A stretch of DNA of 64,000 nucleotides from Chloroflexota bacterium. Lineage in GTDB: Bacteria > Chloroflexota > Limnocylindria > P2-11E. Shown here one piece after another: positions 1,291 to 23,312 of this stretch. The position numbers were made by a program, and so were the translations under genes. The stretch's first letter is position 1. Each line of letters opens with the position of its first letter. Below the pieces are notes generated by a model. It did not search any database and had not been told where the DNA came from. It saw only the letters and a list, made by a program, of their open reading frames with translations. The DNA lies in NCBI GenBank assembly GCA_038040345.1, contig JBBPIQ010000009.1, positions 3,165 to 67,164 of the forward strand, given 5' to 3'.

Positions 1291-2046
1291 CTACGCGCGG
1301 TTGGACAGCTGATCGGATGCGGTCAGAGGAACCGCGCGCTGCACGATTCTCTTGAGGAAAGCCCGATTCAGCCAGAAACTCTTTCGGGTCACGGGCGTGA
1401 TGCCAGGAGTCGGGTCGACGTCGTCTTTGCCGCGGCCGTGCGGACGGACGTGGATGTAGCGCGTTTCGCTTTCGGCGGGAAGTTTGTTGGCCCCGCGTCG
1501 TTTGATGAGTGATCGGTACATCTCCCACTCGCCCTTCATTCCGGCCAGCTCGGCCCGGGTGGGGGTCCAGAAAAACGCTCCGGCAACCGTGTAGCGAGGA
1601 ATCGGGGCGTCCCGGCCAGCGGCGCGGAGAACGACGAGAAACATGCGCTCTGTCTCCTTGCGGAATGAGCTCGTTCTCCAGGTTTCCCGAACCAGGCGAT
1701 CACGGCGAAAAGCCCGGAAGGACATCTTTTCGAAAGGATGCAAGTCCGCAGATACGCGAACGGTCTTTACGGGAATCTGCCGAAGTTTGAACTGACGCAT
1801 CGCGGATGAAGCTCCCCCGGCGTTAAGCAACCTCCTGATGACCGCCGCACCGAAGTTCTTGGAAACCGCACCACCCTTTGGCACTCGCAACCCCTGTTCT
1901 CGGCCAATCGACCCGACCGTCCGCCCGAGATGTGGAGCGATATACCTGACGACACCCCTCTCAAAAAACTCTGCTGCCCAAGCGTCAGCACTCTTCTTTG
2001 AACTGTTCTCTCGCCTGCTATCAGTCTTGCTCATCACACTCGGCAC
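1291..2046 (-). CDS. MutH/Sau3AI-fold protein, apparently catalytically degenerate
   Basis: Aligns by eye along its length with E. coli MutH. GAAVIRRLLNAGGASS..RQFKLRQIPVKTVRV matches GWIGVLLEIWLGASAG..QDFAALGVELKTIPV. FFWTPTRAEL..EWEMYRSLI matches LLWSPNEEED..DWEELMDMI. YIHVRPHGRGKDD matches YLQIRPKAANAKA. TRKSFWLNRAFLKRIV matches LPRGFYLKKNFTSALL. MutH D70 and E77 align to Q and P, and only K79 is kept. Confidence 0.7.
   Translation of the reverse strand: MPSVMSKTDSRRENSSKKSADAWAAEFFERGVVRYIAPHLGRTVGSIGREQGLRVPKGGAVSKNFGAAVIRRLLNAGGASSAMRQFKLRQIPVKTVRVSADLHPFEKMSFRAFRRDRLVRETWRTSSFRKETERMFLVVLRAAGRDAPIPRYTVAGAFFWTPTRAELAGMKGEWEMYRSLIKRRGANKLPAESETRYIHVRPHGRGKDDVDPTPGITPVTRKSFWLNRAFLKRIVQRAVPLTASDQLSNRA
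1293..1339. repeat. Hairpin motif ACGCGCGGTT-loop-AACCGCGCG, copy 2 (longer loop), inside the 3' end of the MutH-like CDS
   Basis: acgcgcggtt (1293-1302) and aaccgcgcg (1330-1338) are the same arms as at 903-930. Confidence 0.45.
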
Positions 2047-2495: not shown

Positions 2496-5400
2496 TCAGC
2501 ACGCGGGATGCCGCTCCGGGCTGGGGGCGGCCATCTCCTGGAAGAGACATAGAGCATTCGCCAGCCGCATCTGCTCAGGCGTCTTGCAGCGCACACGAAA
2601 GAGCGCAGGGCTAGCGACGACGATGGCCAATCCCTGCGCCCGGGAGATCGCGACATTCAGCCGATTGCGGCTGTAAAGGAAGTCCATCCCGCGGGGCGCG
2701 TCCTCGGGCGCCGAGCTGGCCATCGAATAGATCGCGACTGGTGCTTGCTGCCCCTGGAACTTGTCGACGGTCCCGACCATCGCGCCGTCCGGCAGGCGTC
2801 GCTTCAGTAGCTCGACCTGCGCGTTGTACGGGGCGACGACCAGGATGTCGCCGAGTGCAATACCGCGCGTACCCCGTTCGTCGGTCCACCGAGTGCCTAG
2901 GAGCTCGTCGATCAACGCGCGCACGCGGGTAGCCTCCTCCTCAGACTCGATCTTGTTTCCAGTGTGCTCGACAGCCTCGAACCGCAAGCCGTTCGTCCCG
3001 CTGGTGAACGTGCGGGCGCGTGCTGCGTCCACCGGTTCGAGTCGCGACTCATAGAACGCCTGGGACACGAAGTCGCAGATCTCAGGCCGCAACCGCTGCG
3101 TGCGGTCGAGGAATAGGCCAGCCTCCGTCGGAATCGTGACATGGTCACCCAGCATGTGCTCGAGCACCGATACGTCGGAGCCCGGCGGATGCGCGCCCTG
3201 CGACGGCTGCGCGAGCTGGTTCGGGTCACCGAGGAGGACGATGTTCTGAGCGCACGGGGCGACCGCGAGCGCGTTCGCGAGGGCGAACTGTCCGGCCTCG
3301 TCGATGAAGAGCACATCAATCGTGTCTTGCAGCTCCGCGCGGGCAAAGAGCCAAGCCGTCCCGCCGATTACATCCAGCCCTGACCCAAGCGCGCCATGCA
3401 CCGCCTTCGACTCGACGCGTTCGATCCGCCGGTCATGCGCCCCTTCATCTTCGTTGGCCCTCTGGGCGACGCGGACCGACGCTCCACGCGCATCCGCGCG
3501 TCGACAGATCTCGTCGAGGAAGTTGCCGATGACCGCGTGGCTCTGGGCAACCAACCCGACCTTCTTGCCGGCCGCGACGAGGTCGAGCGCGATCTCTGCG
3601 CCGGCGAACGTCTTGCCGGTCCCCGGTGGCCCTTGGATCGGCAGGCACCCGCCGTCCAGGCGAGGCACGAGCCGCCGAGCCGCTTCGATGGCGCTCTCGC
3701 CGGTCGATCGCAGCGGACCGGTGGACGAACGATCGAGCCGGGGCGGACGACGGAGCAGGATGTCGCGCGCGGCGCGCGCGTAGCCGGGTGCGTCGATCCC
3801 GTTCGCCACGACCCAGCGGGCCAGGCGCAGAAGCGACTCCTTCTGATCCTTCTCGAAGAACTCGACCGACGGCACCAGCGCGGCCGGCTGGGTCGGGGTG
3901 CGTCCGTGATTCAGCCGCAAGGTCCCGTGCCCAAGCTCGAGTATGGTGCCGGCCTTTTTCTGCGTGGCCGGATCGTGCGGGCCGTCCCCGACCTTGAGCC
4001 GATGATCCTGGTCAGCCGGGAAGCGATAGCTCTGGTGCCAGGACTGCACGACCTTTTGCGCTGGACCAACCGGCACGAGTCCGCCGATGGCTTGGCCGTC
4101 CTCGAACAGCTCGATCTCGTTCATGTCGCACCGGTCGAAGTACGCCCACCACTGCGACTTCTTCTCCCGCCGGTGATAGCCGAGGACCTGCGCCAGCAGC
4201 CAGCGCGCCTGCTGATCCGGTGTGCGGTCTTCCGCAGGGACCCCCGCGCAGAGCTCGGCGATGAGCCCAGCATTCTCATCTTCGGGCGCAAGCTCGCTGT
4301 CCTTCGGACGCGCCGGCACCGGCGGTCGCGGGACCTCGCCGAAACGCCCGATAGCCTCGGCGCGGCAGCCCTCGAGCCAGTCCCGCAGCTTCAGCGTCGA
4401 GACGCAGTCATCACGGTTGTAAGCCTCGATGTCGTCGAGGATCCGTTGGTCGTGCGTCTCCAGCCACGTTTCGTACGCGACGATGCTCCCGCCGGCATCC
4501 GCGATCGCGCCGGCCCGCGGCTCCATGTAGAGGGGCTCGAGCTTCTTGATCGAGTACGACTCCTGGGACACGGCGATGCCTTGACGAACGACGCGATACA
4601 GATCCACGAGCACGCCCTCCCGCAAGAGCGTGTCGATGGCGTCCTCGCGGGTCGCGTGGGTGCCCATGAGCCGCTTGAGAGCGGTCTCTTCGTAGGCGGC
4701 GTAGTGGTAGACGTGCAGGTCCGGGTAACGCAGCCGGAACTCGGTGACGAAGTCGATGAAGTCCTCGAACGCGCGCTTCTCGCCGGCGCGGTCGTGCCCC
4801 CAGAACGAGCGAAAGCGGATCTCGCCGCCTTCGCGCCAGGCAACACCAAAAAGGTATTCAAGGCCGTCATCGATGAGGGGGTCGCCTTCCATGTCGAAGA
4901 ACAAGTCGCCATCGGAAGGCTCGGGGAGGCGGGCGAGGCCGCGCTCCGGGCCCTCGGGCGGGAGCAGCTCGGATGTAACCCTGCCCGTCGTGCGCTGTTG
5001 GACTTGCAGCCGGGCCTGACGCTCGAGCCGGGCAAGGGTGGGATCACCGATGCCAGTAACGTGTGTCTCGGCCGACTCGGCGAGAGCCGTGAGCGTGGGA
5101 ATTCCGGCCACGCCGAGCTTGAGCACCTGTGCGCGCCCCAGGCCGGCGACGAAGATGAGATGGTCGTCGGCGCGCCACTGCGCGGTACAGCGGTCGGCCC
5201 AGCGGCAGACGTCGCAATGCTCGACTCGGTCGGGGTATGTGGTCGGTCCAGCCGCGATAGCCTCATCGAACTGTCGCTTTACGGCCCGGTAGTAGGCGGC
5301 GTAGTCCTCGAAGCGGAACGTCGCCGTCGATCGGTCGCCGAGCACCACGTGGATGTGCTCGGGGGCCCTCCCTTGAACTGCCGCGAGCTGCGACGAGTAC

Positions 5401-5876
5401 GCGCACGTCTGGAGCAGGGCAGCGGCCTTCGCGTGCCGTGCGAGCTTGGTGTCCGCGACCTCGTAGCTGAATGGGCCGAGGTCGCTGGGAATGTTGACTC
5501 GCAGGAGAAAGTCGGCGAAGCCCTGCCAGCGGCCGTCAAAGAACGCGCCTTGGTAGATGACGTCGGGCCCTGCTCGCAGGGCGGTGACGGTCCGTGCGTG
5601 GAGCTCTCTGAGACCCTCGAGGCCTGAGCTCTCTAAGGCGTCACGGTCTGCGCCGATGACGGTGATGGACCGGCCCTCGGCGCGCAGCTGATCGAGGTAG
5701 CGGGTCTCGTGCTCCATCCCCCGGCGGGCAAGGAGCGCGAGCTCGGGGTCGTCGCGCTCGGGCCGCACGAGCTCCCCCGCCATCGCTTTTCGCTCGAGCG
5801 TGAGTAAGTGATCACAACTGAGGTAGCCCGTCAGGTCGCTTGGGCTGAAGACTGGCACTCCTTCGACGATGCGCAC
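2496..5876 (-). CDS. Bifunctional RecB-like (TM0106-type, PD-(D/E)xK with Cys cluster) nuclease / RNase H-like domain / SF1 DNA2-Upf1-type helicase
   Basis: The N-terminus SPSDLTGYLSCDHL...GMEHE...YEVADTKLA plus CDVCRWADRC is typical of TM0106-family RecB-like nucleases. The FFDMEGDP block follows. C-terminal helicase motifs are IQGPPGTGKT, LFIDEAGQ, VDKFQGQQAPVAIYSM and NVAISRAQ. Confidence 0.85.
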   Translation of the reverse strand: MRIVEGVPVFSPSDLTGYLSCDHLLTLERKAMAGELVRPERDDPELALLARRGMEHETRYLDQLRAEGRSITVIGADRDALESSGLEGLRELHARTVTALRAGPDVIYQGAFFDGRWQGFADFLLRVNIPSDLGPFSYEVADTKLARHAKAAALLQTCAYSSQLAAVQGRAPEHIHVVLGDRSTATFRFEDYAAYYRAVKRQFDEAIAAGPTTYPDRVEHCDVCRWADRCTAQWRADDHLIFVAGLGRAQVLKLGVAGIPTLTALAESAETHVTGIGDPTLARLERQARLQVQQRTTGRVTSELLPPEGPERGLARLPEPSDGDLFFDMEGDPLIDDGLEYLFGVAWREGGEIRFRSFWGHDRAGEKRAFEDFIDFVTEFRLRYPDLHVYHYAAYEETALKRLMGTHATREDAIDTLLREGVLVDLYRVVRQGIAVSQESYSIKKLEPLYMEPRAGAIADAGGSIVAYETWLETHDQRILDDIEAYNRDDCVSTLKLRDWLEGCRAEAIGRFGEVPRPPVPARPKDSELAPEDENAGLIAELCAGVPAEDRTPDQQARWLLAQVLGYHRREKKSQWWAYFDRCDMNEIELFEDGQAIGGLVPVGPAQKVVQSWHQSYRFPADQDHRLKVGDGPHDPATQKKAGTILELGHGTLRLNHGRTPTQPAALVPSVEFFEKDQKESLLRLARWVVANGIDAPGYARAARDILLRRPPRLDRSSTGPLRSTGESAIEAARRLVPRLDGGCLPIQGPPGTGKTFAGAEIALDLVAAGKKVGLVAQSHAVIGNFLDEICRRADARGASVRVAQRANEDEGAHDRRIERVESKAVHGALGSGLDVIGGTAWLFARAELQDTIDVLFIDEAGQFALANALAVAPCAQNIVLLGDPNQLAQPSQGAHPPGSDVSVLEHMLGDHVTIPTEAGLFLDRTQRLRPEICDFVSQAFYESRLEPVDAARARTFTSGTNGLRFEAVEHTGNKIESEEEATRVRALIDELLGTRWTDERGTRGIALGDILVVAPYNAQVELLKRRLPDGAMVGTVDKFQGQQAPVAIYSMASSAPEDAPRGMDFLYSRNRLNVAISRAQGLAIVVASPALFRVRCKTPEQMRLANALCLFQEMAAPSPERHPAC

Positions 5877-6055: not shown

Positions 6056-6688
6056 GTGCTATCCGAACCTCGTGAAGACGCTATACGGGATCTGTGGCAT
6101 GTAAGGAGGCCCTTCGGGACGCTCGGGTCGTTCAGGGCCACTCGCCGTCCGGGTTCTTGGACGGAAGGCCCGGAAGGACATCTTCTCGAAGGGTCTGAGG
6201 TCAGGCGCGACCCGGACCGTCTTGACCGGTATCCGCCGAAGATCGAATTGGTAGATGTCAGACCGTGCGCCTCCAGCGTTAAGAAGCCTTCGGACTACCA
6301 CGGCCGCATAGTTCTTTGGAACCTTGCCATGGCTAGGGAATCGAGCTCCTTCCGGGCCGACGTCCTCCGGCTGTTCATGGTTGTTCTCCGAGCCGGCAGC
6401 GAAACGATGCCGATGCCGCAGTACACACTTTCGCGCGCTTTCTTCTGGTCGCCAACCGATGGGCAGCTGCTCGACATCGGGCGCGAATGGAAGATGTACC
6501 AGGCTCACATCCGCCGTCGAGGAGCCGTAGCCCTACCTCGCGAGAGCGAGACTAATTACATACATATTCGACCGCACGGACGAGACAGCAAGGATTTGGA
6601 TCCGACGGCGAAAATCTTGCCGACTACCCGCAAGAGCTTCTGGCTGAATCGGGAGTTTCTGGCGATTATCGTCCGCCGACGTAGATAG
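6056..6688 (+). pseudogene. Second MutH/Sau3AI-fold paralog whose central 56 codons are inverted relative to the flanks; the ORF stays open in both orientations
   Basis: The plus-strand C-terminal half (from ~6338: RESSSFRADVLRLFMVVLRAGS...YIHIRPHGRDSKD...TRKSFWLNREFLAIIV) matches the 1291-2046 product. The matching N-terminal block (GKVPKNYAAVVVRRLLNAGGARSDIYQFDLRRIPVKTVRVAPDLRPFEKMSFRA) is encoded on the minus strand at ~6160-6333. The first ~30 plus-strand codons (..PFGTLGSF..) weakly match HLGRTVGSIG of the paralog. Confidence 0.7.
6167..6358. repeat. 12-bp perfect inverted repeats (GGCCCGGAAGGA at 6167-6178, TCCTTCCGGGCC at 6347-6358) bracketing a 168-bp invertible-looking segment
   Basis: Read directly from the sequence. 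The spacer 6179-6346 is exactly 56 codons, and both arms sit on codon boundaries of the 6056 frame (GPEG and SFRA). An 8-bp palindrome GCCATGGC at 6326-6333 lies near the homology junction. Confidence 0.8.
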
Positions 6689-6895: not shown

Positions 6896-7759
6896 ATGGC
6901 GTCGCCTAAGGGAGTCGACGGAACCCGGCTCCTTTATCCCTACCTCCAGAAGGACTTGCTATCGAGCGATGTGTGGCTGTTCCAGATGCTTACCGCCCGT
7001 CTTGTCGTGGATCTGGGAATTTGGTTGCCTCCGATCGTCTATCAACGGCTGCCAGTCCTTCTTCCCTACGCTGTCCGGGATCCTGACTGCCGCGGCGATC
7101 CGAAGAACGGAATACCCGATCAGTGGGGGTCACCCAACAGCGCCGGCTTCTTTCGTGACGACAACAGTCTGGTGAAGGTCATGCCGCGGAGCCTGTCAAT
7201 CGAAAGCGAGAGGAGCGTCTACCGCTCTGCCCGGATGGACAAAGGCTTCGTTGCCGCTCACGTCTGGAGACGCCTTACTGGCGGCGCTTCGGCCGCCCGC
7301 GATAGGCTCACATACTCCTTCGTCCCGAACCTCGTGTGGTTGCCGAGCGACGTCGCGAGACTTACCGACCGAGAGGGCTCCTTCGTGCAGGCCTTCGTAC
7401 AAGCACTTGCGGTCAAGACCTACCGCGGGTTGCCCGTCGTGCCTTCGATGAAGCGATTCGTAGATCAGATTTGGGAAATGCTCCCGCAACCCCTAGGCAT
7501 CCCCCAGCAGGCTCTACCGGGGGTCGAGGATTTGAATTTCTTCTCAGTGACCCCAGCGTGGCTCGCTCGACGGCTCCAGAAGATCGTCGGTGTCCATGAA
7601 GCGTTCAAAGACCTACGGGCCGGGGCGCTCCATCGACCAAAAGTCATCTCCAGCCGATACACCACCGGATTGATCTCGATGAAGCCCGAGAGCGCACGGG
7701 TGCTGTACGAGGAACTCGACCTATACCGAAACTGTTGCGAGGACGCGGCCCGGGGATAA
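6896..7759 (+). CDS. Hypothetical protein, possible HNH_2-like nuclease fold
   Basis: GFVAAHVWR followed ~20 aa later by NLVWLPSDVARLTDREG loosely resembles the HNH_2 pattern (AAHI.P ... N.l.L...lH.lFD.g), but the second His is absent. Nothing else is recognised. GC is lower than the surroundings. Confidence 0.3.
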   Translation: MASPKGVDGTRLLYPYLQKDLLSSDVWLFQMLTARLVVDLGIWLPPIVYQRLPVLLPYAVRDPDCRGDPKNGIPDQWGSPNSAGFFRDDNSLVKVMPRSLSIESERSVYRSARMDKGFVAAHVWRRLTGGASAARDRLTYSFVPNLVWLPSDVARLTDREGSFVQAFVQALAVKTYRGLPVVPSMKRFVDQIWEMLPQPLGIPQQALPGVEDLNFFSVTPAWLARRLQKIVGVHEAFKDLRAGALHRPKVISSRYTTGLISMKPESARVLYEELDLYRNCCEDAARG

Positions 7760-10327: not shown

Positions 10328-12367
10328 TCAGATGTACTCCCCCACCAGGTGAATAAGGTTATACGCGTCAAGTATCGGCCAAATGACCGCCCTGGCGGCG
10401 TCGGGATTCATCGAGGATGCGGCGAAGTCAAGCACCCGGCGCAATTCCTTCTCGACGAGCTGCCGTTCGTATTCCCCGCGCAACTTCGGCACGACGACAT
10501 AGTCAACTATCCGGGCCCGGTTCTTTCCAGGGGCGAGCCGAAGCACTCTTCCGCGCCGCTGGATGAATTCCCTCGGATTGCCGCTGCTCGCCAAAATGTA
10601 CGCTTCGCGGGTCTCGGGGATGTCGACACCTTCATCAAGCGCCTTCATCGCAACAAGTGCAGGTATTCGCGCCGCGGCGAACCCCGAGAGCAGTTCTTGC
10701 CTCGTTGCGCTGGGTTCCTCCGCCGTGAAAGCCCGAGGGAGATAACCTGCCGCACGCAGAGTTTCGGAGACAGCATCGAGCTGTCGGCGGGACGCGCAAT
10801 AGAACAGCGTCCGGCTTGGAGGATCGAGAGCGATTGCCTCGCGGACCTTTTCTAACTTCCCCATTGCGCCGTTAAGGACGCGGACTCGCTCTTCTTCTAG
10901 GTGTCCCAGCCGAACTATGTCCCTTTCGCGAACGGCATGTTCGATTTCCTCGACCGTGTGGTCGTAGGTCTCGAGTTCGGACTTGTCGAGATCTACCAGC
11001 ACGGGTTCGTATCGGTACGGTGAGAGGCATCTAGCTGCGATTGCCGCCCGTACTCCGAATTCGTAGACAACTGGACCGAAGTACCTGAATAGTCGCGCCG
11101 TACCGGCCTCGTCCTCCCACCTAGCGGGGGTCGCGGACAGACCGAGACGGTAGGAGAATTTCTCATCCATAAGCGACTCGTGGTGCTCTGCGCCGAGGTG
11201 ATGAACCTCGTCTGCAATCAACAATGCCCGGCGCCCGTCGATTCGCCTGAGTACGCTCTGGAACTCCGACACGCCTGCGGTGCTGATCGTCGAAACGAGG
11301 CAAATGCTCCGGCTCCCGCCTGCAGCCTGCGTGTCGACGGCGTCCCACGCTTCGCGGCGCCAATCGCTTGTTCCGTAACAACGAACCGGACGCAAACCCC
11401 ACGCTGACGCACGGTCGACCCATTGATCAACGAGATGAATGAACGGGGTCACGACGACGAGCGCAAGTTCTCTTTTGACCTGGTCGCGGAGCCGGACAGC
11501 GCAGGCCAAGGACGTCTCTGTCTTGCCGGTGCCTGTGGCCATCGAAAGGATCCCGCGGCCACCGGCCGCCATCCAAGCGTTTACGGCGTCGTCCTGATAG
11601 GGGCGAAGTGTGAATTCGGCAGGCTGGTTAAAGCGACGCGTTAGGCGAACGGCTTCGCGGGCTACAACGGGTACCGATCGACGTGAGGAATTCGCGATCG
11701 AAACGAGCTCGGCGCGCACCGCTTGGGGGAGGGATATGACATCAAGGAGTGGGGTCTCATTGCGCCAAAGCGCTTCGAAGTTCCTGGTCTTTTGTTCGAC
11801 GCGGTCGGAGGAGTCATCCCAGGAGAAGAACACATCGATCGATTCAAAATTGCTCACGAGCCCGCCCACGGTCTCATTCGCGGACCCTGAGAATGCGACG
11901 GCGGAATCGACGTCGTCTCGGAATATTCCGACCTTCTCGTGGAATATCCCTGACCCCTTTCTGGGCACAGCAATTCTGATTTCCAGCCGATCGGCGGCCA
12001 CGAGCCAAGCCAAACGCAAGGCGCTGTCCTTCTTTCCTGCGCTCTCCCAGAGCGCCTCGAGAAGTCGCATCTCGACGATGTCGCTCTTGGCGGCCTCTCC
12101 CCGCTCGATCGCCGTCAAGTCGTCTTCTCTTAGCTGCGGACTCGCAACGAGACGCATCCGACCTTCGTGACGTTCGAAGACGTCAAGACCCTGGGCCGCC
12201 AAGGTCAACCCATCACCGGTGAAGTAGCCGACGGCGCGGTCATAACGGGTTGCTCGGGCCAGACAGGGAACATAGAAGTCGTCGACGATGTCGGACGAAC
12301 CCGAGCGGTACTCCTTCTTGAGCGACAAATCTCGCAAAGCTGAGGCGCCGGCCATCTGACTAGTCAA
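10328..12367 (-). CDS. Phospholipase-D-like (single HKD) nuclease domain fused to an SF2 DEAD/DEAH (ResIII-type) helicase
   Basis: HKD motif HEKVGIFRDDVDSAVAFSGSANET. Helicase motif I MATGTGKT, motif II ADEVHH, motif VI QRRGRVLR. The listed start at 12367 is TTG. An ATG at 12355 lies 4 nt after the upstream TAG and is the likelier start. Confidence 0.8.
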   Translation of the reverse strand: MTSQMAGASALRDLSLKKEYRSGSSDIVDDFYVPCLARATRYDRAVGYFTGDGLTLAAQGLDVFERHEGRMRLVASPQLREDDLTAIERGEAAKSDIVEMRLLEALWESAGKKDSALRLAWLVAADRLEIRIAVPRKGSGIFHEKVGIFRDDVDSAVAFSGSANETVGGLVSNFESIDVFFSWDDSSDRVEQKTRNFEALWRNETPLLDVISLPQAVRAELVSIANSSRRSVPVVAREAVRLTRRFNQPAEFTLRPYQDDAVNAWMAAGGRGILSMATGTGKTETSLACAVRLRDQVKRELALVVVTPFIHLVDQWVDRASAWGLRPVRCYGTSDWRREAWDAVDTQAAGGSRSICLVSTISTAGVSEFQSVLRRIDGRRALLIADEVHHLGAEHHESLMDEKFSYRLGLSATPARWEDEAGTARLFRYFGPVVYEFGVRAAIAARCLSPYRYEPVLVDLDKSELETYDHTVEEIEHAVRERDIVRLGHLEEERVRVLNGAMGKLEKVREAIALDPPSRTLFYCASRRQLDAVSETLRAAGYLPRAFTAEEPSATRQELLSGFAAARIPALVAMKALDEGVDIPETREAYILASSGNPREFIQRRGRVLRLAPGKNRARIVDYVVVPKLRGEYERQLVEKELRRVLDFAASSMNPDAARAVIWPILDAYNLIHLVGEYI

Positions 12368-12911
12368 AATTCTCCGGCTCGATTCCGATCAGCATCATCG
12401 GCCCCGGCACCATCCGCGGGAGACTGGAGACGAGCCGGACCATCTCGGCAGCAACCTGCTCAAAGCTCACCACGTTAGAGTCGATCGCGTTCGCGAACTT
12501 CTGGGTTGGAAGAACAAAGACAGCAAGCCGAACGATTCCCGTCGCGTATCCAAAAGCAACGCGAGTGACAAGGTTATAGGCGTAATACGACCGATTCCCG
12601 AATTCGAATATTGCGTGGACGCCCGTGCGCAACGTATCGGCGGTGACGCGCCTTATACGTATGTCATTTGTGGCTGACTCGGCTGCGAACAAGACGTCCC
12701 TCTTCCATTCCCGCTTCTGCAATTCCGCCCTCAGACTTCGAATCAAACCGGTCTGGTCGAAAACGTATTGCGGCTTTGCCTTGTGGCGCACCTGGCGTGG
12801 AGCTTGTGTGTTGCGGAGGACCTCGACAAGTTCCGAATACGTGCCGAAGATTTCGTTGTCCAAACGGAGCAAGTCAACGGCTCCAGCTAGCGGAGCATCC
12901 CTAATGATCAT
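12360..12911 (-). CDS. BglII/BamHI/BstYI-fold type II restriction endonuclease-like protein
   Basis: ADTLRTGVHAIFEFGNRSYYAYNLV...LAVFVLPTQKFANAIDSNVVSFEQV...PMMLIGIEP matches the remembered BglII-family layout (D..(8-9)..E.x..FGn, then ..vlI.P...l....g..sfe......vigi). The residue two after the putative catalytic E is F rather than Q or K. Confidence 0.55.
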   Translation of the reverse strand: MIIRDAPLAGAVDLLRLDNEIFGTYSELVEVLRNTQAPRQVRHKAKPQYVFDQTGLIRSLRAELQKREWKRDVLFAAESATNDIRIRRVTADTLRTGVHAIFEFGNRSYYAYNLVTRVAFGYATGIVRLAVFVLPTQKFANAIDSNVVSFEQVAAEMVRLVSSLPRMVPGPMMLIGIEPENFD

Positions 12912-12936: not shown

Positions 12937-13467
12937 TCAGAATCGCTCCATGGGTCGAATGCGAAAGTCTCCTCGACGTCGAGCGATCACTCGGCCGACC
13001 GTCCGTGCAACGCGTGGCGCATCGGTCAATTCGTGATCCCAAATCTCAACGACGACCCACCCTAACGTCCGCAGCTGCGAGCGCACACGAGCGTCGCGAA
13101 GCCGATTGCGGCGAAACTTCGACGACCAAAACTCACGATGGGATTTAGGAAGAGGCAGACGACACGTGGGACATCTGTGCCAAAAGCAGCCATGGACGAA
13201 GATGGCTACGCGCTCGGCACGAAAAGTCAGATCGGCACGGCCCGCGGGGGTGACGGCGTTTCGTCGATAGCCGGTCACATGCGCCTGGCGAAGGGCTCGT
13301 CCCAATCTGATCTCCGGGCCTGTGTGCGCGGGGCGGTTCGCTCGCATGACCGCGCGCGCAGCCAGCGACGATGGCGGCGGATTCCGGGGGTCTGTCGGGA
13401 TTAGCGGTCTAGGCACCTGTGAGAGTGAGCTGCTCGACCCCCGCTCTACGCGTACGCTCTCGATCAT
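12937..13467 (-). CDS. vsr: Very short patch repair (Vsr) T:G mismatch endonuclease
   Basis: MRANRPAHTGPEIRLGRALR...GRADLTF...VAIFVHGCFWHRCPTC...FWSSKFRRNRLRDARV...LGWVVVEIWDHEL are canonical Vsr motifs. The start is uncertain: the ORF opens at 13521, with Met codons at 13479, 13467 and 13347. Any early start overlaps the dcm 3' end, as in E. coli dcm-vsr. Confidence 0.85.
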   Translation of the reverse strand: MIESVRVERGSSSSLSQVPRPLIPTDPRNPPPSSLAARAVMRANRPAHTGPEIRLGRALRQAHVTGYRRNAVTPAGRADLTFRAERVAIFVHGCFWHRCPTCRLPLPKSHREFWSSKFRRNRLRDARVRSQLRTLGWVVVEIWDHELTDAPRVARTVGRVIARRRGDFRIRPMERF

Positions 13468-15292
13468 CCTTCGGCCCATACCTCTTAAGAGCGGCTTCGA
13501 AGAGTCGCGAGGGGTCGGCACCAGAATTCGAGCGGAGTTTTCGGACAGGTCGAGCTCGTAGGTTCGGTTGCCAAATCGCGGGAAGGTTCACCGCGCCCCA
13601 TGTGGTGCCGCTGTTCGCCAACGAGCATACGTAAGCAACTCCTACAAGAAGCGCCGCTGTGCTTGGGGCAGTCCACTTTGCCGAACGCGCGGAGTCTATG
13701 TAGACGACTGTTTGGGTGCTCGTGTATCGGCGACCAACGATTTCGGCGACGGCGTCAAGGATTCTGTAAGGAGTCGAACCGACTGCGACCTTTCCGGACC
13801 ACGCCGCTTGAAGCGTCGATGCATCCGGGACGATTGGGGGGAGGGTCTCTTGGAAATCAGCGATGAGTCGGCGGGCACGATCGAGTGACCGCGCGTCCGA
13901 GATCGTCAAAGCGAGTCTCTCGAGGGCGCCGCGCAAAGAGACCGACTCTGCCCGGACACGCTTTCCGGAGCCCCTGTAGAGGAGGGCCCGCCACTCGACC
14001 AGATGGGCCGGGTGCCGCCGTCCTTCCATCCAGAGAAGATTCGGTGAAGCCAACTTGCCCTGATTGTCGAAATCGATCCGGGAACTGCCGTGCTTTGATC
14101 CTCTGACGTGATCGCGGAACTTTCGAAGGAGCGAGTGAGACCTTCGGCGCTGACCTGTGAGTTCGATGTCCGGTGACGGCAGGATTCCCGTTGTTATGAC
14201 GTGCGGCTGCTCAGGTGAGGCTTCGCCAGCGAGAGCAAGGATTTCCTTGGCGATTGCGAAGGGCACCAGGGGCGGAACCGCGTTGCCAACCAGTTTGTAG
14301 CGCAGGCTCTCCGTCTTCGCCCACCATTGATACGTGATGGGGAATGACTGGACCGATGACGCTTCTCGCACCGTGAGCCGGCGATAGCCATCTTCGGTCG
14401 CGACGATGATGGCCTCGCGATTCGGCCGAAGCTGTGTCGCGACGACCGTCCGAGCCGGCCTATCAAGGGCATCTGGGAAGAGCATCTTTCCGTACCAAGA
14501 ATGCCCGGTCTTCGTTCGCCGGATTTCATCGACTTCGTCGTCAGTGAGACGCAGGGCAGTCGAGAAGTGGTCAGTAAGTTCGTGAGCGGGCACGCCAAAA
14601 TCGTAAATCGGATCCGTAATCACTTCGCCAAGCTGCGGCCGGCGCTCCGGAGCTGGAAGACCACCAATCACATCGCCGAGACTGCGCGATTCGGGCAACA
14701 GTCCCGGTCTCTGCGCATGCGTCGCTTCGGGTAGTGGAAAGTCACCCGAGAAGAGTCGCGCACGTCTCTGCGGAACGCCGTAGTCGGATGCGAGAAGTAT
14801 TTGTCTTCGTGGGATGCTCAGGGTGCCCTTTCCGCGGACTCCGAGCTTAGAAAGCGGCACTTCCTCAGGAAGAAACTCCAGAGTCCGCGGGACATTTTCC
14901 ATGATCCACCACTTTGGCTTCAGTTCATAAACGAATCGAAGAAACCGGTATACGAGTCGGAGCCCTGCCTCGATATCGCCACTCCCGCCCCGCTTCGCAA
15001 ACGAAAACTCAGTGCAGGGAGGACTTCCGATCAGGACGTCGACGTGACCGACCCGTTCGGGAGCATATGACAAGAGGTCCGCCTGTTCGACGGTCGTATC
15101 TGGATGGTTTACCCGGTGCGTTTCGACGGCCGCACGCCAGAAATCAACCGCGTGAACGACGCGAAATCCGGCTTGCCGGAAGCCTTCCGAGAATCCCCCT
15201 GCCCCGCAAAACAAATCCGCGCACGTGAGGCTCATCGGTACGACAGTACCGAACGAGGCCGACTCGCCGGTTCGTCGTCGTCGAACGAGCAC
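13409..15292 (-). CDS. dcm: DNA (cytosine-5)-methyltransferase with a ~250-aa C-terminal extension of unknown function
   Basis: Motif I DLFCGAGGFSEGF, motif IV GSPPCTEFS, ENV, QRRARLF and GNAVPP. A likelier start is the ATG at 15235 (MSLTCADLFCGAGG). No motif is recognised after ~aa 380. Confidence 0.9.
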   Translation of the reverse strand: MLVRRRRTGESASFGTVVPMSLTCADLFCGAGGFSEGFRQAGFRVVHAVDFWRAAVETHRVNHPDTTVEQADLLSYAPERVGHVDVLIGSPPCTEFSFAKRGGSGDIEAGLRLVYRFLRFVYELKPKWWIMENVPRTLEFLPEEVPLSKLGVRGKGTLSIPRRQILLASDYGVPQRRARLFSGDFPLPEATHAQRPGLLPESRSLGDVIGGLPAPERRPQLGEVITDPIYDFGVPAHELTDHFSTALRLTDDEVDEIRRTKTGHSWYGKMLFPDALDRPARTVVATQLRPNREAIIVATEDGYRRLTVREASSVQSFPITYQWWAKTESLRYKLVGNAVPPLVPFAIAKEILALAGEASPEQPHVITTGILPSPDIELTGQRRRSHSLLRKFRDHVRGSKHGSSRIDFDNQGKLASPNLLWMEGRRHPAHLVEWRALLYRGSGKRVRAESVSLRGALERLALTISDARSLDRARRLIADFQETLPPIVPDASTLQAAWSGKVAVGSTPYRILDAVAEIVGRRYTSTQTVVYIDSARSAKWTAPSTAALLVGVAYVCSLANSGTTWGAVNLPAIWQPNLRARPVRKLRSNSGADPSRLFEAALKRYGPKDDRERTRRAGVEQLTLTGA

Positions 15293-17220: not shown

Positions 17221-18096
17221 TCACGCGCCGCTGCTCTCTCGACGCTCGACTGGGACGTCCACCACGGTCACGGGGACGTCGATGAGCGGGAAACGCCCGG
17301 TTCGACCGGCGACCTGCCAGATCTCGCCGAAAGGTCCGACGCTCCCACGAAGCGCATCGAGAGATGTAAACCGGAACGCCCTGCTTATCCGTGAGGCCTC
17401 CGTTCGGCCGCTGAAGATGGCTTCGGTCGCTCCGCGGAGCGCGCTCGAGCGCCGCTCGGTCCGCGTCACCGTGAGGATGAGCGGCCAGACCGGAAGGCGC
17501 ACGCGCCACGAACCGCCGCGATAGAGGTCCAGATACCGCTCGATCTTGCGTCCGAAAAAGCGGCTTCTCTCGCTTCCGCGATCGGCCTCGATGAACGCAT
17601 GGATGCGGCGCTGTGCGGTCTCATAGATAAAGCGTGCGTCCGGAGCGACCGGCTGGCGTCCAAGGCTCTCGGCCACCTGCCAATCGCACTCCCAGATGAG
17701 CGCGTCACCGTCGCGATGAGCGCGAGCCTGGCGGAGGAAGGCGAGCGCGATCTCCGCGACCATGAGGGCGTGCGCCAAGAGAAAGGTCCCTTCGACGCGC
17801 GGACGCCGCAGCGGGAGGCCAGGCTCGAGCGCTCCGAAGACCCTCCGGCCTGAAGCTGTGAGGAAGTACGCGATACGGGTGGGCATGCCGTCGGGATCGC
17901 CCGCGAGTAGCGCGTTGGTCGTGATGAGCTGGCGTTGTCGTAGGCGCCGGAGGATTCGCCAGGTGCCGACCTCGCGGGAGTGAGCGCTAAGCGGGGACTC
18001 GCCGAGGACGAACTCCTCGATCTGGGCGCGGCTCAGAAAACGATACATCCCGAGGTACCGGAGCGCGTCCATCTCGCGGGAAGATCCTTCGATCAT
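17221..18096 (-). CDS. Replication-relaxation (Replic_Relax) family protein
   Basis: MDALRYLGMYRFLSRAQIEEFV...RILRRLRQRQLI...PDARFIY......AFIEADRGSE fits the family pattern. Candidate starts are ATG 18096 or ATG 18072, and the listed 18201 start adds a low-complexity extension. Confidence 0.65.
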   Translation of the reverse strand: MIEGSSREMDALRYLGMYRFLSRAQIEEFVLGESPLSAHSREVGTWRILRRLRQRQLITTNALLAGDPDGMPTRIAYFLTASGRRVFGALEPGLPLRRPRVEGTFLLAHALMVAEIALAFLRQARAHRDGDALIWECDWQVAESLGRQPVAPDARFIYETAQRRIHAFIEADRGSERSRFFGRKIERYLDLYRGGSWRVRLPVWPLILTVTRTERRSSALRGATEAIFSGRTEASRISRAFRFTSLDALRGSVGPFGEIWQVAGRTGRFPLIDVPVTVVDVPVERRESSGA

Positions 18097-18271
18097 CTGC
18101 GAATAACATGACGCGGAAAAACTCCCGCCAGCCGGCGGCTGGTTTCCCGCACGAATCGGGGCTCTTGAGTGTGGTGGCCGACCACCGCGTGACCCACACA
18201 CCGCACAACACTTCGCGCGGGCCTCGACTCGGAATGGATCCGCCCTCTGGCCGCCGCCCGGAAGACCACGC

Positions 18272-20554
18272 TCACGGCTGGACCACCCCGACCTGTTCCT
18301 CCGTCTTCGCGGTGCTGCCCTTGCCCAGTGCCGCCTCGAGCGCAGCGTCGATCTCGGCGACGGGTTTCCCGTGGCGCTCGCGTGAGGCAGCCACGATCTC
18401 GTCGCGAAGCGAAGGTTCCTCGACCACGGCCGCTGGCAGGGTGCGCAAGGTGAAGGGCGCGGAGGTGTGTCCGCCGATCGAAAGACGCGCCGCCGCCTCG
18501 AAACGCCCTAAGGAAAGGAGCGCGGTCGCATCGAGCGGCGCGAACTCCCGGGCAAGTGTCGCGGCATCGTCGTGGCCGCACTGGAACACCAATCTGCTGC
18601 GGGCGTTGGCGCGCACCGCCTCGCGCAGCTCCCGCGGCAGCTGGCCCAGATGCTGGTTGGCGATGATCAGCGAAAGGCGCAGGCTCCGGGCCTGAGCCAA
18701 GGCATCCCCGAACGGACCCGCGATACCCAGGAAGTTCTGGAACTCGTCGATATAAAGGAAGAAGTCGCGACGGTCGGCTTCTGGAATGCGCGAGCGTCCG
18801 AGCACCGCCTGCCAGAGCCGGGCGACGAGGAAGCTGCCGACAAGCGCGGCCGCGGTCTGGCCCCAGCGGCCGACGTTGAGATCGGCGAGCAGGATCTGCC
18901 CTGTGTCGACGACGGTGCGCAGATCGACCTTCGAGTGTGGCTGACAGAGCAGATGCCGCAGCCGCGGACGGATCAAAAAGTCGCGGAGCTTATTGAGCAC
19001 CGGTCCGATGGCTTCGCCGCGCTGACCCTCGCTGAGCCCTTCGAACCATATCCAGAACCCCTCGAGGCCTAGGGGGTCGTGGAGCCCTTGAGTGATCCTC
19101 CGGCGAAAGCCCGGATCTGTGAGCAGCACCGGGATGTGGGCGAGGGTCGGCTCCGGGGTGCGGAGGAGGGTGAGCAGCGAAGACTTGAGGATGTCGTCGG
19201 TGCGCATGCCCCAGAAGCGCTCGTAGATGCGTTTGAAGATGGTGAGCGTGTTTTCGGCGACGAGCTCCTGGTCGTCGCCCGGTGCGAGCTCGAGCGGGTT
19301 GAGTCCGACCGAGGTATCCAGATCGTCCGGGGTGATGAGAACCACGTCCTTGACCCGTGCGGCCGGGATGCGCGCGAGGACGCCTTCCACGAGATCGCCC
19401 TTGGGATCAAGCACCGCGACCCCGCGACCCGCCGCGATGTCCGCGACCGCGAGGTTGAGCATGGCCGTGGACTTCCCGGTGCCGGTCGCACCCAGAAGAT
19501 GCAGGTGCTGACGCGAGTCCGGAATCGAAAGACCGACCGGCACGTTCTCGCCGGCCCAGGTCGAGACTCCAAGTCGTCGCTCGCCCTGCTGCACCCCGGC
19601 TGGCGGCGGAACCTTCGGCGAGCGGATGAGCGCAAGCGACGGCAGCGCGGCGTGCGGCGGATGCCAGAGACCCGCGAGCTCGTCGGCGCAGAGGATGAAA
19701 CTGCCGAAAAGCGGGAACCGCCGGGCGCGCGAAGGATCGCGAGGGCGCGCGGCGCCGGCCGGGCCGAAGGCGAACTTGTTGTCGCCGGCGTAGACACCGA
19801 AGCCCGCAGCGACTCCGCGGAGGAGCTCAGCCGAGCGCGCGCGGCTCGCGCTCGCCGCGTGCACCTGGAGCACGCAGTCGAACCCCGGGCTCGCCGCCTT
19901 CCCCTCGATCGACGCGGCGTGCCGGCGCTCGAACTCCCAGGTGCGCCCCCCGATCACACCCGGCAGCGGAAGTGCCGTGCCGGCGCGGCCATCGCGCAGG
20001 CGCTGCGCTCGGGCGATCGCGCGGCGCTCCCAGTGCTCGCTCTTGGGACGGACCAAGAAATCCAGCGAGAGCTCCTCACCCTCGCCGGCGCGCGCGGCCG
20101 CCGCGATGAGCGCGGCCAGCGGCTCGTCGGCGAAGCGCGTCTTGATCGGAAGGAGGTCGCCGCGCGCGAGGCGCGCCCGCATCACGGCGTGATTGCGGGT
20201 GGCGAGCGCGGGCTCGCCGAGCGTGGTGAGCTCGACGCCGGGGTACGCCCCGCGCAGCACTCCCAGGACGAAGTCCGCGTGCCCCTGCGGGATCCAGATG
20301 CGCAAACCGACCTGCCGCGCGCGGCTCGTGAGGCCGAGCGCGATGAAGGGCTGACCCGCGATCAGTCGCTCGAGCTCGGGACGCAAGAGGCCGTGGAGAC
20401 CGATGAGCAGCTGCCCCGGTGAACCGCTCGCCGCGGGCGCGGTCACCTCGTAGGTCTGCCCCGCGAAGCGACGGAGCCGGCCGCGAAACGCAAGCATGAG
20501 CACGACGAGGACGAGCGGCACGATGATCGAAGCGGCGGTCGCGGCGATCTCCAT
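18272..20554 (-). CDS. Type IV coupling protein (TraD/VirD4/TcpA-like ATPase)
   Basis: N-terminal TM MEIAATAASIIVPLVLVVLML, Walker A LLGATGTGKST, Walker B FFLYIDEFQNF, and ANQHLGQLP. The listed 963-aa ORF includes ~200 aa of Arg-rich out-of-gene extension overlapping the CHAP gene. Confidence 0.8.
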   Translation of the reverse strand: MEIAATAASIIVPLVLVVLMLAFRGRLRRFAGQTYEVTAPAASGSPGQLLIGLHGLLRPELERLIAGQPFIALGLTSRARQVGLRIWIPQGHADFVLGVLRGAYPGVELTTLGEPALATRNHAVMRARLARGDLLPIKTRFADEPLAALIAAAARAGEGEELSLDFLVRPKSEHWERRAIARAQRLRDGRAGTALPLPGVIGGRTWEFERRHAASIEGKAASPGFDCVLQVHAASASRARSAELLRGVAAGFGVYAGDNKFAFGPAGAARPRDPSRARRFPLFGSFILCADELAGLWHPPHAALPSLALIRSPKVPPPAGVQQGERRLGVSTWAGENVPVGLSIPDSRQHLHLLGATGTGKSTAMLNLAVADIAAGRGVAVLDPKGDLVEGVLARIPAARVKDVVLITPDDLDTSVGLNPLELAPGDDQELVAENTLTIFKRIYERFWGMRTDDILKSSLLTLLRTPEPTLAHIPVLLTDPGFRRRITQGLHDPLGLEGFWIWFEGLSEGQRGEAIGPVLNKLRDFLIRPRLRHLLCQPHSKVDLRTVVDTGQILLADLNVGRWGQTAAALVGSFLVARLWQAVLGRSRIPEADRRDFFLYIDEFQNFLGIAGPFGDALAQARSLRLSLIIANQHLGQLPRELREAVRANARSRLVFQCGHDDAATLAREFAPLDATALLSLGRFEAAARLSIGGHTSAPFTLRTLPAAVVEEPSLRDEIVAASRERHGKPVAEIDAALEAALGKGSTAKTEEQVGVVQP

Positions 20555-20586
20555 GAGGTGATCGAGGACGGCGAGCGCGGCTGACG

Positions 20587-21066
20587 TCAGCCCGTCTCCG
20601 CGTCGCTCCGCGGGATGAACCCCTGCACATCCGGATCGGGCCAGCCGATTACCCGCGTGCTCACCCGCCCCCAACCGGCGGCGGCGTTCATCTCGCTCAC
20701 GGTGTACTGAGAAGGCGTGACCGCGACCACGATGGCGACGTGCCCGAGCGGGCTGTACCGTCCGCCGGGCCAATAGACGACGATCGCGCCGAGCGAGGGC
20801 TCCGCGCTCGTGGGCACGCCCATCGCGCTCGCGTTTGTGAGCCAGTCCCCCGCGTTGCCGCCCCAGGTGACGCGACGGTTGTATGCCGCCCACCAGGTGC
20901 ACTGACCGAAGGGAAAGCGGTTCGGGAAGCCGCCCGAGGGGACCCATGAAAACGGCGGCTCGACGGGCGCGGCTCGCGGCGCGACCGCCACGGCGGCGAC
21001 CGGCGCTCCGATGACCGCAGGGACGATGAGCAGAAGAAGCAACGGCGCGGCGAGCGCGAGCTTCAT
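20587..21066 (-). CDS. Secreted CHAP-domain peptidoglycan hydrolase
   Basis: Signal peptide MKLALAAPLLLLLIVPAVIG, catalytic Cys context FGQCTWWAA and His context GHVAIVV. The ATG overlaps the VirB4 TGA (ATGA). Confidence 0.8.
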   Translation of the reverse strand: MKLALAAPLLLLLIVPAVIGAPVAAVAVAPRAAPVEPPFSWVPSGGFPNRFPFGQCTWWAAYNRRVTWGGNAGDWLTNASAMGVPTSAEPSLGAIVVYWPGGRYSPLGHVAIVVAVTPSQYTVSEMNAAAGWGRVSTRVIGWPDPDVQGFIPRSDAETG

Positions 21067-23312
21067 GTCGCGCGCCCGCCCGCGATGAGGCGCGCCTCCT
21101 CGGCCGTGGCCACAACTTGAAAGGGGACGCGCTTCCCTTGCGCGACGAGGAGCCCTTCGCCACGCGCCGCGCCGAGCAGCCAGCTCTGCTCCGCGCGGGT
21201 CAGCCGGAAGAGCTCGGCCAGACGCGGCATGGCCTGCGGCGCCTGCTTCATCAGCACCTGGAGCGCGGCGTTGGCGATGACCGCCTCGCCGTCGGGACTC
21301 GCGAGCACATCGCCGACGTCCTGCGTCACGAGGGTGAGTCCCGCGCGGCGCTTGCGCGCGGTCTTGACCAGCCGGAAGAGATACGCCGCGGTGTCCGCGT
21401 GACGCATGAGCCACCAGGCTTCGTCGACCACGACGAGGGTCGGGCGGCTCGAGTCGGCGAGGCTCGACCAGATCGCATCGAGCACTAGGAACATCGCGGC
21501 GGCGCGCTCTTCCTCCGGCAATCCCGCGAGCACGTACACGACGCCGAGCCCATTCGTCGTCCCCGGTGGCGAAGTGTTCTCGTCTCGAGAGAAGAGCCAT
21601 CCGCTCGCACCGCTCACGTACGGGGAGAGCCGCCGCGCCAGGTCCTCGAGCGTGGCCGTACCCACCAGACACGCGCGAAGGTCCGCGAGGTTCGGTGCGC
21701 GCAGGGCGGTCGTGGCTCGGCCGTCGGCGAAGCCGGCACGCGCGTATATAAAGGAGAGCGCGCTCGCGATCGCGGCGCGCTCGCCCGGAGCGAAGCCGCC
21801 GACGAGCAGCGCGACGAGCGTCTCGAGCACGGCGATGCGACTGGTCAGCGCACCCGGCGAAGCGTCGGCGACCGCGAACGGGTCGAGACCCATCGCGGCG
21901 CCGGGCCGCAGCGCGACGAGCGAGACCCCGAGCTGCGTGAGCAGCGGCGCGTATTCGCCCTCGGGATCGATGACCAAGGCGCGGTGCCCCGCGAGTAGCG
22001 CGCGGGCGAGTTCCACTTTGACCAGATACGACTTCCCCGCGCCGCTCGTCGCGAAGACGACGGCGTTGTGATTCTCCAGGGCGAAGCGATCGAGGAACAC
22101 CGGACTGCGCGTCGCGGCGTTCACTCCGTAGAGCAGACCGGCCCGCGCAGCGAGGTCCGTGCCGGTGAAGGGAAAGCTCGCCGAGAGCGCGCCCGTCGAG
22201 AGGACACGGCGCACGGCGACCGGCTCGATCCCGAGGGGGAGCGATGAGAGGAGCCCGCCGCGCATCTGAAAGAGGAGCCGGTGGGTCTGCATGATTCGCG
22301 TGCCGAGGAGCGCCTCCAGACGCAGCGTCGCCGCGTCGAGCTCGCCCGGGCTCCGCGCCCAGAGCGTGAAGTACAGGCCGACGTCGAAGAGCCGCTCCGT
22401 CCCCTGCGCCACACGATCCTGCAGCTCGAGCGCATCCTGAAGCGCGGCGCGCCGATAGGGATCGCCGCGTCCGCCGGATTGCTCGATCAGGCGGACCGTC
22501 GAGGAGAGCTCGGCGACCCGCCGCTCCAGGAACGCCATCACCGCGGGGCCCGCGCTCGGACGAAGGTGCAGCGCGACATCGAGGTCGCCGTCGAACGCTT
22601 GAAGGTCGCCGAGCCAGCCCGGCTCAAGGCGCGCGGGATACCGAGTGAGCGCGACGGTCCGCGCGAAGCGCTCGCTGACCCCAACCCATGCGGCGTGCTC
22701 AACGAACCCGGCGGGGGCCACGAGGTCGGCGGCATCGAGGACGCTCGCGCCGGGCGCGAGCGGCTGCTCGAGCGCAACCGGATCGAGGCTACGGCGGAGG
22801 AGGTCCGCGAGCTCCGGATCCGGAAGGCGGCGCGGCTGGAGATCGAGGCGGCGGAGGGATCCCTCGATCCAGCGCACACGCTGTTCCAGTGCGGCGAGAC
22901 CCTCCGCCGCATTCGACCCGCGGTGACGAGAAGCGTCGTCCCAGGGGACGACGACGTAGAAGCGGCGGTCCACGATGCGCCGCTCGCTCGCGAGCTCGCC
23001 GAGGAGCCTCGCGTAGGACGCACTGAATGGCGCGCGCCGCTCATCACTGGGTGCGGAGAGCGGCGGCAGCGCCCGTGTGTCGAGCGCTCGCGTGCGGATG
23101 ACGATCTGGAGCGGGTGCGCGAGCGAGTTGAGGAGAGCGGCCCAGCCGTCAACGATCGCGCGCTGCTCGGCCTCGCCCTTGATGCCGAAGGCGAGCGTCG
23201 GGCATTCGAGGATCGCGCGCAGGCCGCCGTCTCGCAGACACAACGCGTCGGCGGCGATCGCGGCGAGCGGCACGAGCTCGCGCGTCGGCCGCCGCCGGTG
23301 CGGGAGCCTCAC
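21063..23312 (-). CDS. VirB4/TrbE-family conjugal transfer ATPase
   Basis: Walker A VVFATSGAGKSYLVK and Walker B TLVVVDEAWWLM, with LVTQ downstream. The GTG at 23312 overlaps the PrgI-like stop (GTGA), and the listed start at 23522 overlaps that gene. Confidence 0.85.
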   Translation of the reverse strand: MRLPHRRRPTRELVPLAAIAADALCLRDGGLRAILECPTLAFGIKGEAEQRAIVDGWAALLNSLAHPLQIVIRTRALDTRALPPLSAPSDERRAPFSASYARLLGELASERRIVDRRFYVVVPWDDASRHRGSNAAEGLAALEQRVRWIEGSLRRLDLQPRRLPDPELADLLRRSLDPVALEQPLAPGASVLDAADLVAPAGFVEHAAWVGVSERFARTVALTRYPARLEPGWLGDLQAFDGDLDVALHLRPSAGPAVMAFLERRVAELSSTVRLIEQSGGRGDPYRRAALQDALELQDRVAQGTERLFDVGLYFTLWARSPGELDAATLRLEALLGTRIMQTHRLLFQMRGGLLSSLPLGIEPVAVRRVLSTGALSASFPFTGTDLAARAGLLYGVNAATRSPVFLDRFALENHNAVVFATSGAGKSYLVKVELARALLAGHRALVIDPEGEYAPLLTQLGVSLVALRPGAAMGLDPFAVADASPGALTSRIAVLETLVALLVGGFAPGERAAIASALSFIYARAGFADGRATTALRAPNLADLRACLVGTATLEDLARRLSPYVSGASGWLFSRDENTSPPGTTNGLGVVYVLAGLPEEERAAAMFLVLDAIWSSLADSSRPTLVVVDEAWWLMRHADTAAYLFRLVKTARKRRAGLTLVTQDVGDVLASPDGEAVIANAALQVLMKQAPQAMPRLAELFRLTRAEQSWLLGAARGEGLLVAQGKRVPFQVVATAEEARLIAGGRAT

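Follow-up and report, generated by a model that had tools for sequence, protein, structure and literature searches.

A probable one-off rearrangement scar with an inverted segment in a MutH-like gene of a Chloroflexota defence island

Spontaneous inversions in E. coli were reportedly found between short inverted repeats, down to 12 bp, by Schofield, Agbunag and Miller (Genetics 1992). Where replication switches template between imperfect inverted repeats of short length, or within a quasi-palindrome, the spacer ends up inverted and the arms become perfect (PMC8604942). The recoding intragenic invertons of Chanin et al. ('Intragenic DNA inversions expand bacterial coding capacity', bioRxiv 10.1101/2023.03.11.532203) are defined by reads in both orientations, and neither form is obviously truncated; the responsible invertase need not adjoin the segment that it flips, and a locus that is fixed in a single orientation may no longer be capable of inverting (bioRxiv 10.1101/2023.03.11.532203).

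Here we analysed a locus at 6056-6688 of a 64,000-nucleotide stretch of a Chloroflexota bacterium contig, the whole of which is referred to as the window. The first-pass annotation of this stretch had noted a segment between inverted repeats inside a MutH-like gene and had offered two readings, an invertible switch between two isoforms and a fixed inversion that killed the gene. Our data favour the second and do not support the first. The locus is best explained, with a probability of about 0.72, as a fixed, recombinase-independent micro-rearrangement scar with a deletion in a redundant paralog, leaving the gene dead.

The MutH/Sau3AI family and the rearranged copy

The label MutH-like holds for the family, as judged by the Pfam MutH match of the paralog in the window (25.2 bits, curated cut-off 23), by comparison of a family profile with the PDB and by Foldseek. 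The profile matched Sau3AI (4PXG) with an E value of 3e-34 and MutH (2AZO) with 1e-28, and the AlphaFold model of an intact ortholog (pLDDT of 92.4) gave a TM score of 0.82 to MutH and also superposed on Sau3AI-C. This ortholog, P0001, is a protein of 215 aa encoded at 194-841 of a JGI soil-type metagenome contig (locus L004). About 955 relatives belong to the family, many of them two-domain proteins of the size of Sau3AI. The catalytic residues of MutH, D70, E77 and K79 in a D-(X)6-E-X-K triad, align with Q...P-[VI]-K in the window copy (6155-6346), in the paralog and in the ortholog; some other family members keep E...E-x-K at these positions. The three copies that read Q...P-[VI]-K are probably DNA-binding modules without catalytic activity, comparable to the C-terminal domain of Sau3AI. 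Positions 1-192 of L004 contain the 3' end of an HNH-type nuclease gene, the stop of which lies one base before the P0001 start codon, an arrangement that suggests a two-gene unit of an HNH nuclease and a catalytically degenerate MutH-fold partner. Neither window copy is adjoined by such an HNH gene.

The features of the two window copies are as follows.

1291-2046, minus strand: intact paralog P0003, 55% identical to the ortholog, Pfam MutH
6056-6688, plus strand: ORF of 210 codons as sequenced, a mosaic and not a family-like protein
6103-6166, plus strand: left flank, reading RRPFGTLGSFRATRRPGSWTE, a degenerate look-alike of family residues ~80-95 (RPFEKMSFRAFR)
6106-6200, no strand: imperfect palindrome of ~95 nt centred near 6155, the left junction zone, which contains the left arm
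6155-6346, minus strand: inverted block, well preserved, profile positions 37-94 (6328→6155), ortholog residues ~27/31-91
6167-6178, no strand: left 12-bp arm GGCCCGGAAGGA, the minus-strand reading of which, SFRA, is the conserved 'MSF[PR]AF' site of the family (site 1)
6338-6685, plus strand: C-terminal block in the original orientation, profile positions 102-217, 71% identical to the ortholog
6347-6358, no strand: right 12-bp arm TCCTTCCGGGCC, the plus-strand SFRA of which is the second S-[FL]-R site of the family in its original orientation

The arms are exact reverse complements, as had been claimed, with 168 bp (56 codons) between them, and each is codon-aligned in the 6056 frame; on re-translation the two translations quoted with them proved correct, and the 8-bp palindrome GCCATGGC reported at 6326-6333 is present. 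The proposal that the interior is an inverted segment of the family was borne out by tblastn with the ortholog and by the family HMM, both of which divide the match between the strands. Residues 27-91 of P0001 match the window from 6358 down to 6161 on the minus strand (79% identity, E 1e-32) and residues 102-215 match 6341-6685 on the plus strand (71% identity, E 4e-59), and a profile built from 21 family members is split in the same way, the minus strand carrying positions 37-94 (6328→6155) and the plus strand positions 102-217 (6338-6685). Compared as DNA, the paralog aligns with 6162-6323 in one direction and with 6410-6653 in the opposite one; its identity to the inverted block is only 68%. 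A stretch of ~190-210 bp, corresponding to family residues ~27-91, is reversed between a poorly conserved left flank and a C-terminal half that looks intact. Neither the ORF as sequenced nor the arm-flipped ORF reaches any Pfam family, and gene callers in the public collection call only the last 119 codons of the ORF (6329-6688, P0002).

Members of the family contain the motif S-F-R-A / S-[FL]-R-x at two sites, in direct orientation and 14 residues apart, the second site being SLRS in the ortholog and SFRK in the paralog. Since the minus-strand reading of the left arm is the conserved 'MSF[PR]AF' site and the minus-strand homology runs past it, the left arm lies inside the inverted block. The annotation had cautioned that homology extends beyond the left repeat, rightly so, as the minus-strand match (SFRA-FR) continues for 6-12 nt past this arm, to 6155-6161. 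The right junction falls at ~6343-6349 and overlaps the palindrome GAGCTC (6343-6348), and a CGAGC/GAGCTC microhomology can be read at this junction. The locus does not fit an inversion of the unit between the repeats with flanks colinear with the gene, because homology extends across the left repeat, the left flank does not correspond to the N-terminus of the family and, beyond the right repeat, 18 residues are lacking.

Within the palindrome of the left junction, 6107-6119 pairs with 6184-6196, 6128-6139 with 6167-6178 (10/12) and 6145-6152 with 6157-6164. As DNA, 6106-6200 folds into a long imperfect hairpin with a z score of −2.66, and 1 of 200 shuffles folds as well. The left flank holds a third SFRA 12-mer at 6128-6139 (10/12), and its similarity, ranked against 5,420 other 64-nt windows, has an empirical p of 0.003 to the ortholog, 0.006 to the paralog and 0.0004 to the window's own inverted copy. 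It also has a weak 13/14-nt in-frame match to the N-terminal 'TVGS' of the paralog. The stretch of 27 nt at 6140-6166 resembles the family linker whichever way it is read (p 0.0025-0.01), a test of orientation that does not discriminate because this 27-mer is a small palindrome. The left flank is ~70% complementary to the inverted block, and such a palindrome cannot be a recent perfect fold-back that has decayed, since the blocks show little divergence or decay. The left flank may be the gene's own diverged N-terminus, a relic duplicate or quasi-palindrome-corrected sequence. A palindromic junction is the kind of trace expected of replication template switching or fold-back and not of a site-specific invertase. 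A minus-strand ORF of 149 aa (6059-6508), together with an upstream VLRH match, was considered as a minus-strand gene and rejected, since it lies antisense to MPQY codons that are conserved on the plus strand, and tblastn gave no match there.

Profile positions 1-36 and 95-101 are absent from both strands in HMM searches with all filters off, and the N-terminus of the gene was not found in any strand or frame by tblastn, sensitive blastn or the unfiltered HMM. The N-terminal 36 profile positions form two helices in the model of the ortholog, and the missing positions 95-101 include W100, the sole invariant column among the 21 family members. The locus has lost parts that are conserved in all functional relatives, namely positions 1-36 and 95-101 with W100. 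In order to fix the breakpoints, three reconstructions were scored against the ortholog. The junctions that the flipped states would have are given below.

6167-6178 onwards, arm flip, left junction: GGCCCGGAAGGA then GCTCGATTCCCTAGCC
up to 6347-6358, arm flip, right junction: CCCTTCGAGAAGATG then TCCTTCCGGGCC
6140-6346, wide model, junction: AGGGCC then GCTCGATTCC

Flipping the segment between the arms leaves a gap of 18 residues (ortholog residues 90-107) and, further upstream, an insertion of 6-13 residues, the size of which depends on the homolog aligned. With the best alternative, a flip of 6140-6346, 5 residues are still missing; the alignment score to the ortholog was 659-666 for this wide flip versus 621 for the arm flip. 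The gap falls in the SF.AF..xL..E.WE.S.LR segment, the length of which is constant in 16/16 natural members aligned (31-55% identity to the ortholog). Mapped onto the ortholog model, the arm flip would cost the protein the end of strand 85-90, helix 92-97 and half of helix 104-109.

Neither the ortholog nor the paralog contains an inverted repeat that reaches 11/12 at any point; in these two genes the 12-mers that correspond to the arms show 4-7/12 complementarity, and the two S-F-R sites agree at 7-8/12 positions. The repeat pair is not conserved in orthologous genes, for which one ortholog (L004) and the paralog were compared, and because it is absent from both of these intact genes the perfect repeat is a property of the rearranged copy alone.

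Chance expectation, orientation and genomic setting

Perfect 12-bp inverted repeats with a gap of 20-300 nt are present as 4 distinct pairs in the window, versus ~5.8 expected from first-order Markov simulations of the window. The 12-mer of the arms occurs elsewhere in the 64 kb only at the SFRA site of the paralog, with 1 mismatch. By itself the repeat pair is within chance expectation, and it is meaningful only through its coincidence with the inversion proven by homology. That the 210-codon ORF is open in both orientations, as the annotation had noted, is true, with the qualification that an antisense codon-aligned frame of 56 codons stays open with a probability of ~0.46 at the codon usage of the island. 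Phase is preserved because both arms are codon-aligned copies of one peptide motif.

Other repeat pairs were also seen in the window. A perfect 13-bp inverted pair, CCCTCGGGATCGA, lies at 21958-21970 and 22225-22237 with a gap of 254 nt; a second, AGCGGCTTGGGCG, lies at 30417-30429 and 30494-30506 with a gap of 64 nt, between an ORF ending at 30286 and an ORF starting at 30718; a further 12-bp pair is found at 44192/44429.

Contigs from three sequencing runs, SRR28961249, SRR28961251 and SRR28961252 (1.4, 7.3 and 28.9 kb), match the window at 100% identity throughout the locus and pass straight through both arms with no break at the repeats. Every sample therefore displays one majority orientation, these being consensus assemblies of a single project in which a rare minority orientation would not show. 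The general concern that repeats can mislead assemblers is the sole point in favour of an inversion created by the assembler, and we rejected this explanation, which has a negligible probability given that the matching contigs come from three different runs; a 12-bp repeat is shorter than the usual assembly k-mers and cannot create ambiguity in the graph. In a collection of 5.8 billion protein clusters no protein of the flipped state was found, the search matching only P0001, P0003 and P0002, the 119-aa call made in the present orientation. A search for the locus of the ortholog in GTDB genomes and JGI metagenomes returned no related loci, and a degenerate DNA pattern for PFEKMSFRAFR had no match in JGI metagenomes or IMG/VR. 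Among 80 loci around homologs of the neighbouring helicase (L005-L084) none has a MutH-like neighbour, so that they allow no comparison of orientation and the pairing of MutH-like gene and helicase is local to the window. We found no publication naming run SRR28961252.

The homologs of this RecB-nuclease/helicase (40-58% identity) occur widely in soil MAGs of Chloroflexota, Actinomycetota, Acidobacteriota, Proteobacteria and other phyla. The best matches are from Chloroflexota (58%) and Limnocylindrales (53%) and hint at the phylum of the window without fixing it.

Bases 1 to ~24,800 of the window have a lower third-position GC than the rest and, on account of this and of the gene content listed here, this stretch is a defence island on a conjugative element.

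window 1-24800 / L001 1-3164 upstream: NERD+AAA_22 gene, low-GC3 island
window 1-24800 / L001 1-3164 upstream: AbiU/AIPR gene, low-GC3 island
2496-5876: Mko-like RecB-nuclease/SF1 helicase, 1126 aa
7808-8239: dnd-associated gene, 143 aa
8236-10152: PbeC
10328-12367: PbeA
12360-12911: BglII-like endonuclease
13409-15292: C5 methyltransferase
17221-18201: relaxase
18272-21163: VirD4-like
21063-23522: VirB4/TraC-like
23615-24472: TrbL-like

A scan of ORFs in the 64-kb window and of the genes called over the preceding 3.2 kb yielded neither a serine nor a tyrosine recombinase, in agreement with the earlier remark that no invertase is visible, and the window contains no tRNA gene or integrase. Between the MutH-like remnant and the Pbe genes lies a plus-strand ORF of 287 aa (6896-7759) with no Pfam or PADLOC match, which is present in all three Logan contigs that reach that far.

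Compared with the ortholog, the inverted block has a dN/dS of 0.063 and the C-terminal block one of 0.098 (synonymous sites are saturated), and neither block contains stops or frameshifts. Non-synonymous changes in the inverted block amount to a divergence of 0.088 in total, and we infer from this value that neutral drift of this block would be capped at less than ~9% divergence. Since the blocks are intact and purifying selection is strong, either the rearrangement is young compared with the divergence from the ortholog, or selection still acts on the pieces; the strong purifying selection on the blocks is the main point for a residual function.

Explanations for the rearrangement

Inversion of a segment carrying only the first copy of the motif would turn the direct repeats of the family into an inverted repeat. 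We propose that a template-switch-type event, single or two closely linked, took place in the redundant paralog and that the nascent strand may have returned at the downstream SFR copy, which would delete the linker in the same event. The candidate paths would be an arm flip with an 18-codon deletion or a wider flip of 6140-6346 with a 5-codon deletion, and the product would be a dead gene with a C-terminal half that is still called as an ORF of 119 aa (P0002). Such a template switch would account for the perfect arms, the preserved phase, the missing linker and the palindromic left junction, and loss of this copy would be tolerable owing to the intact paralog 4 kb away. The locus has perfect arms around a reversed spacer where its homologs have imperfect arms around a forward spacer, as is characteristic of a micro-inversion of this kind. 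A microhomology is seen on the right and a quasi-palindrome on the left, and no single switch-and-return path reproduces every feature. The hairpin loops usually discussed for template switching are shorter than the spacer in this case (168-207 nt). Several observations count against a scar. The blocks show no decay, which means that the event is recent or that selection on the pieces continues. The two SFRA sites agree at 12/12 positions, against 7-8/12 in the homologs, and this calls for homogenisation or a lucky coincidence. The complementarity of the left flank is just ~70% whereas a recent simple fold-back would be perfect, and part of the junction is unexplained. The material compared consisted of consensus assemblies from one project and of one ortholog.

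A rival explanation is a mosaic, in which a 5'-truncated plus-strand remnant comprising residues ~80-215 (6103-6166 plus 6347-6688) received an inverted fragment with residues ~27-91 from another gene copy, either by recombination between two copies on the mobile element or by a fold-back inverted duplication followed by loss of one palindrome arm. The plus strand at 6103-6166 does resemble residues 80-95, in frame and colinear with the C-terminal block (p 0.0004-0.006), the region folds as a long imperfect hairpin, and taking out ~177-180 nt joins W-T-E to S-F-R-A roughly as in the family. However, this look-alike has lost the near-invariant Glu (PxE to PFG) and has two indels although the adjacent C-terminal block is intact, it overlaps the alternative 13/14-nt match to the paralog N-terminus, no family residues 1-78 are found upstream on the plus strand by tblastn or HMM, and no donor copy is known, the paralog being just 68% identical to the inverted block. 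We consider the mosaic unlikely. An active recoding inverton, in which an invertase encoded elsewhere flips 6179-6346 to give two in-frame products or an ON/OFF switch, appears quite improbable, and we regard as very improbable that a live recoding or ON/OFF inverton is flipped at low frequency by a recombinase outside the window, with the assemblies displaying the majority state. Inverted repeats do lie inside the gene and match at 12/12 positions, codon-aligned around 56 codons that are open both ways, no decay is seen in the inverted block, the setting is a defence island, in which phase-variable restriction systems are frequent, and documented recoding invertons often have no adjacent or identified invertase (bioRxiv 10.1101/2023.03.11.532203). 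Against this, ~6 such repeats are expected per window by chance and the open frame is equally within chance expectation. The flipped product would lack the family N-terminus and 18 residues of a segment of constant length, including the invariant Trp; the homology of the family crosses the left repeat, which is itself absent, with its partner, from the ortholog and the paralog. The window offers no other candidate inverton site, the 12-mer of the arms recurring only with 1 mismatch at the paralog, and the searches for a recombinase (64-kb window and 3.2 kb upstream), for a second orientation (window and three run assemblies) and for a flipped protein (5.8 billion clusters) were all negative.

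Comparison with described systems

Read as a scar, the locus is a cautionary case, as a codon-aligned perfect repeat around an inverted open segment mimics a switch and repeat-based inverton predictors would call it one. It also offers a clean natural example of an in-frame micro-inversion within a defence island that coincides with a quasi-palindrome and an internally repeated peptide motif (SFRA...SFRx), and it bears on the breakage and reshuffling of defence genes on mobile elements. If flipping were seen in reads, recoding invertons would be extended to a restriction-type nuclease fold.

In hsdS shufflons the swapped units are complete alternative target-recognition domains. The shufflons, or 'epigenetic invertons' (PMC7672463), resemble our locus in that they affect defence genes and that partial gene copies on the plus and minus strands share short repeats; at our locus no recombinase and no alternative complete cassette were found, and the fold is MutH/Sau3AI instead of hsdS. 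As in the recoding intragenic invertons of Chanin et al. (bioRxiv 10.1101/2023.03.11.532203), a repeat pair lies inside the frame and the inversion keeps the frame open and recodes the codons. Unlike them, the locus is seen in one orientation and neither orientation encodes a complete family member.

With respect to the MutH/Sau3AI family (Pfam PF02976; PDB 2AZO, 4PXG and 7XM0), the ortholog, the paralog and both blocks of the locus are members by profile and fold. The paralog by its Pfam match and the ortholog by its model agree with the MutH/Sau3AI fold over the whole domain, whereas the locus at 6056-6688 does not and encodes ~80% of the domain as two pieces on opposite strands (positions 37-94 minus, 102-217 plus). 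The locus differs from described template-switch mutations and short-repeat inversions in the deletion of 5-18 codons and in its degenerate third copy of the motif, and here the mechanism is deduced from the product only. It shares with them a short repeat around an inverted spacer, arms that are imperfect or absent in the homologs, a quasi-palindrome at the junction and the dispensability of a recombinase.
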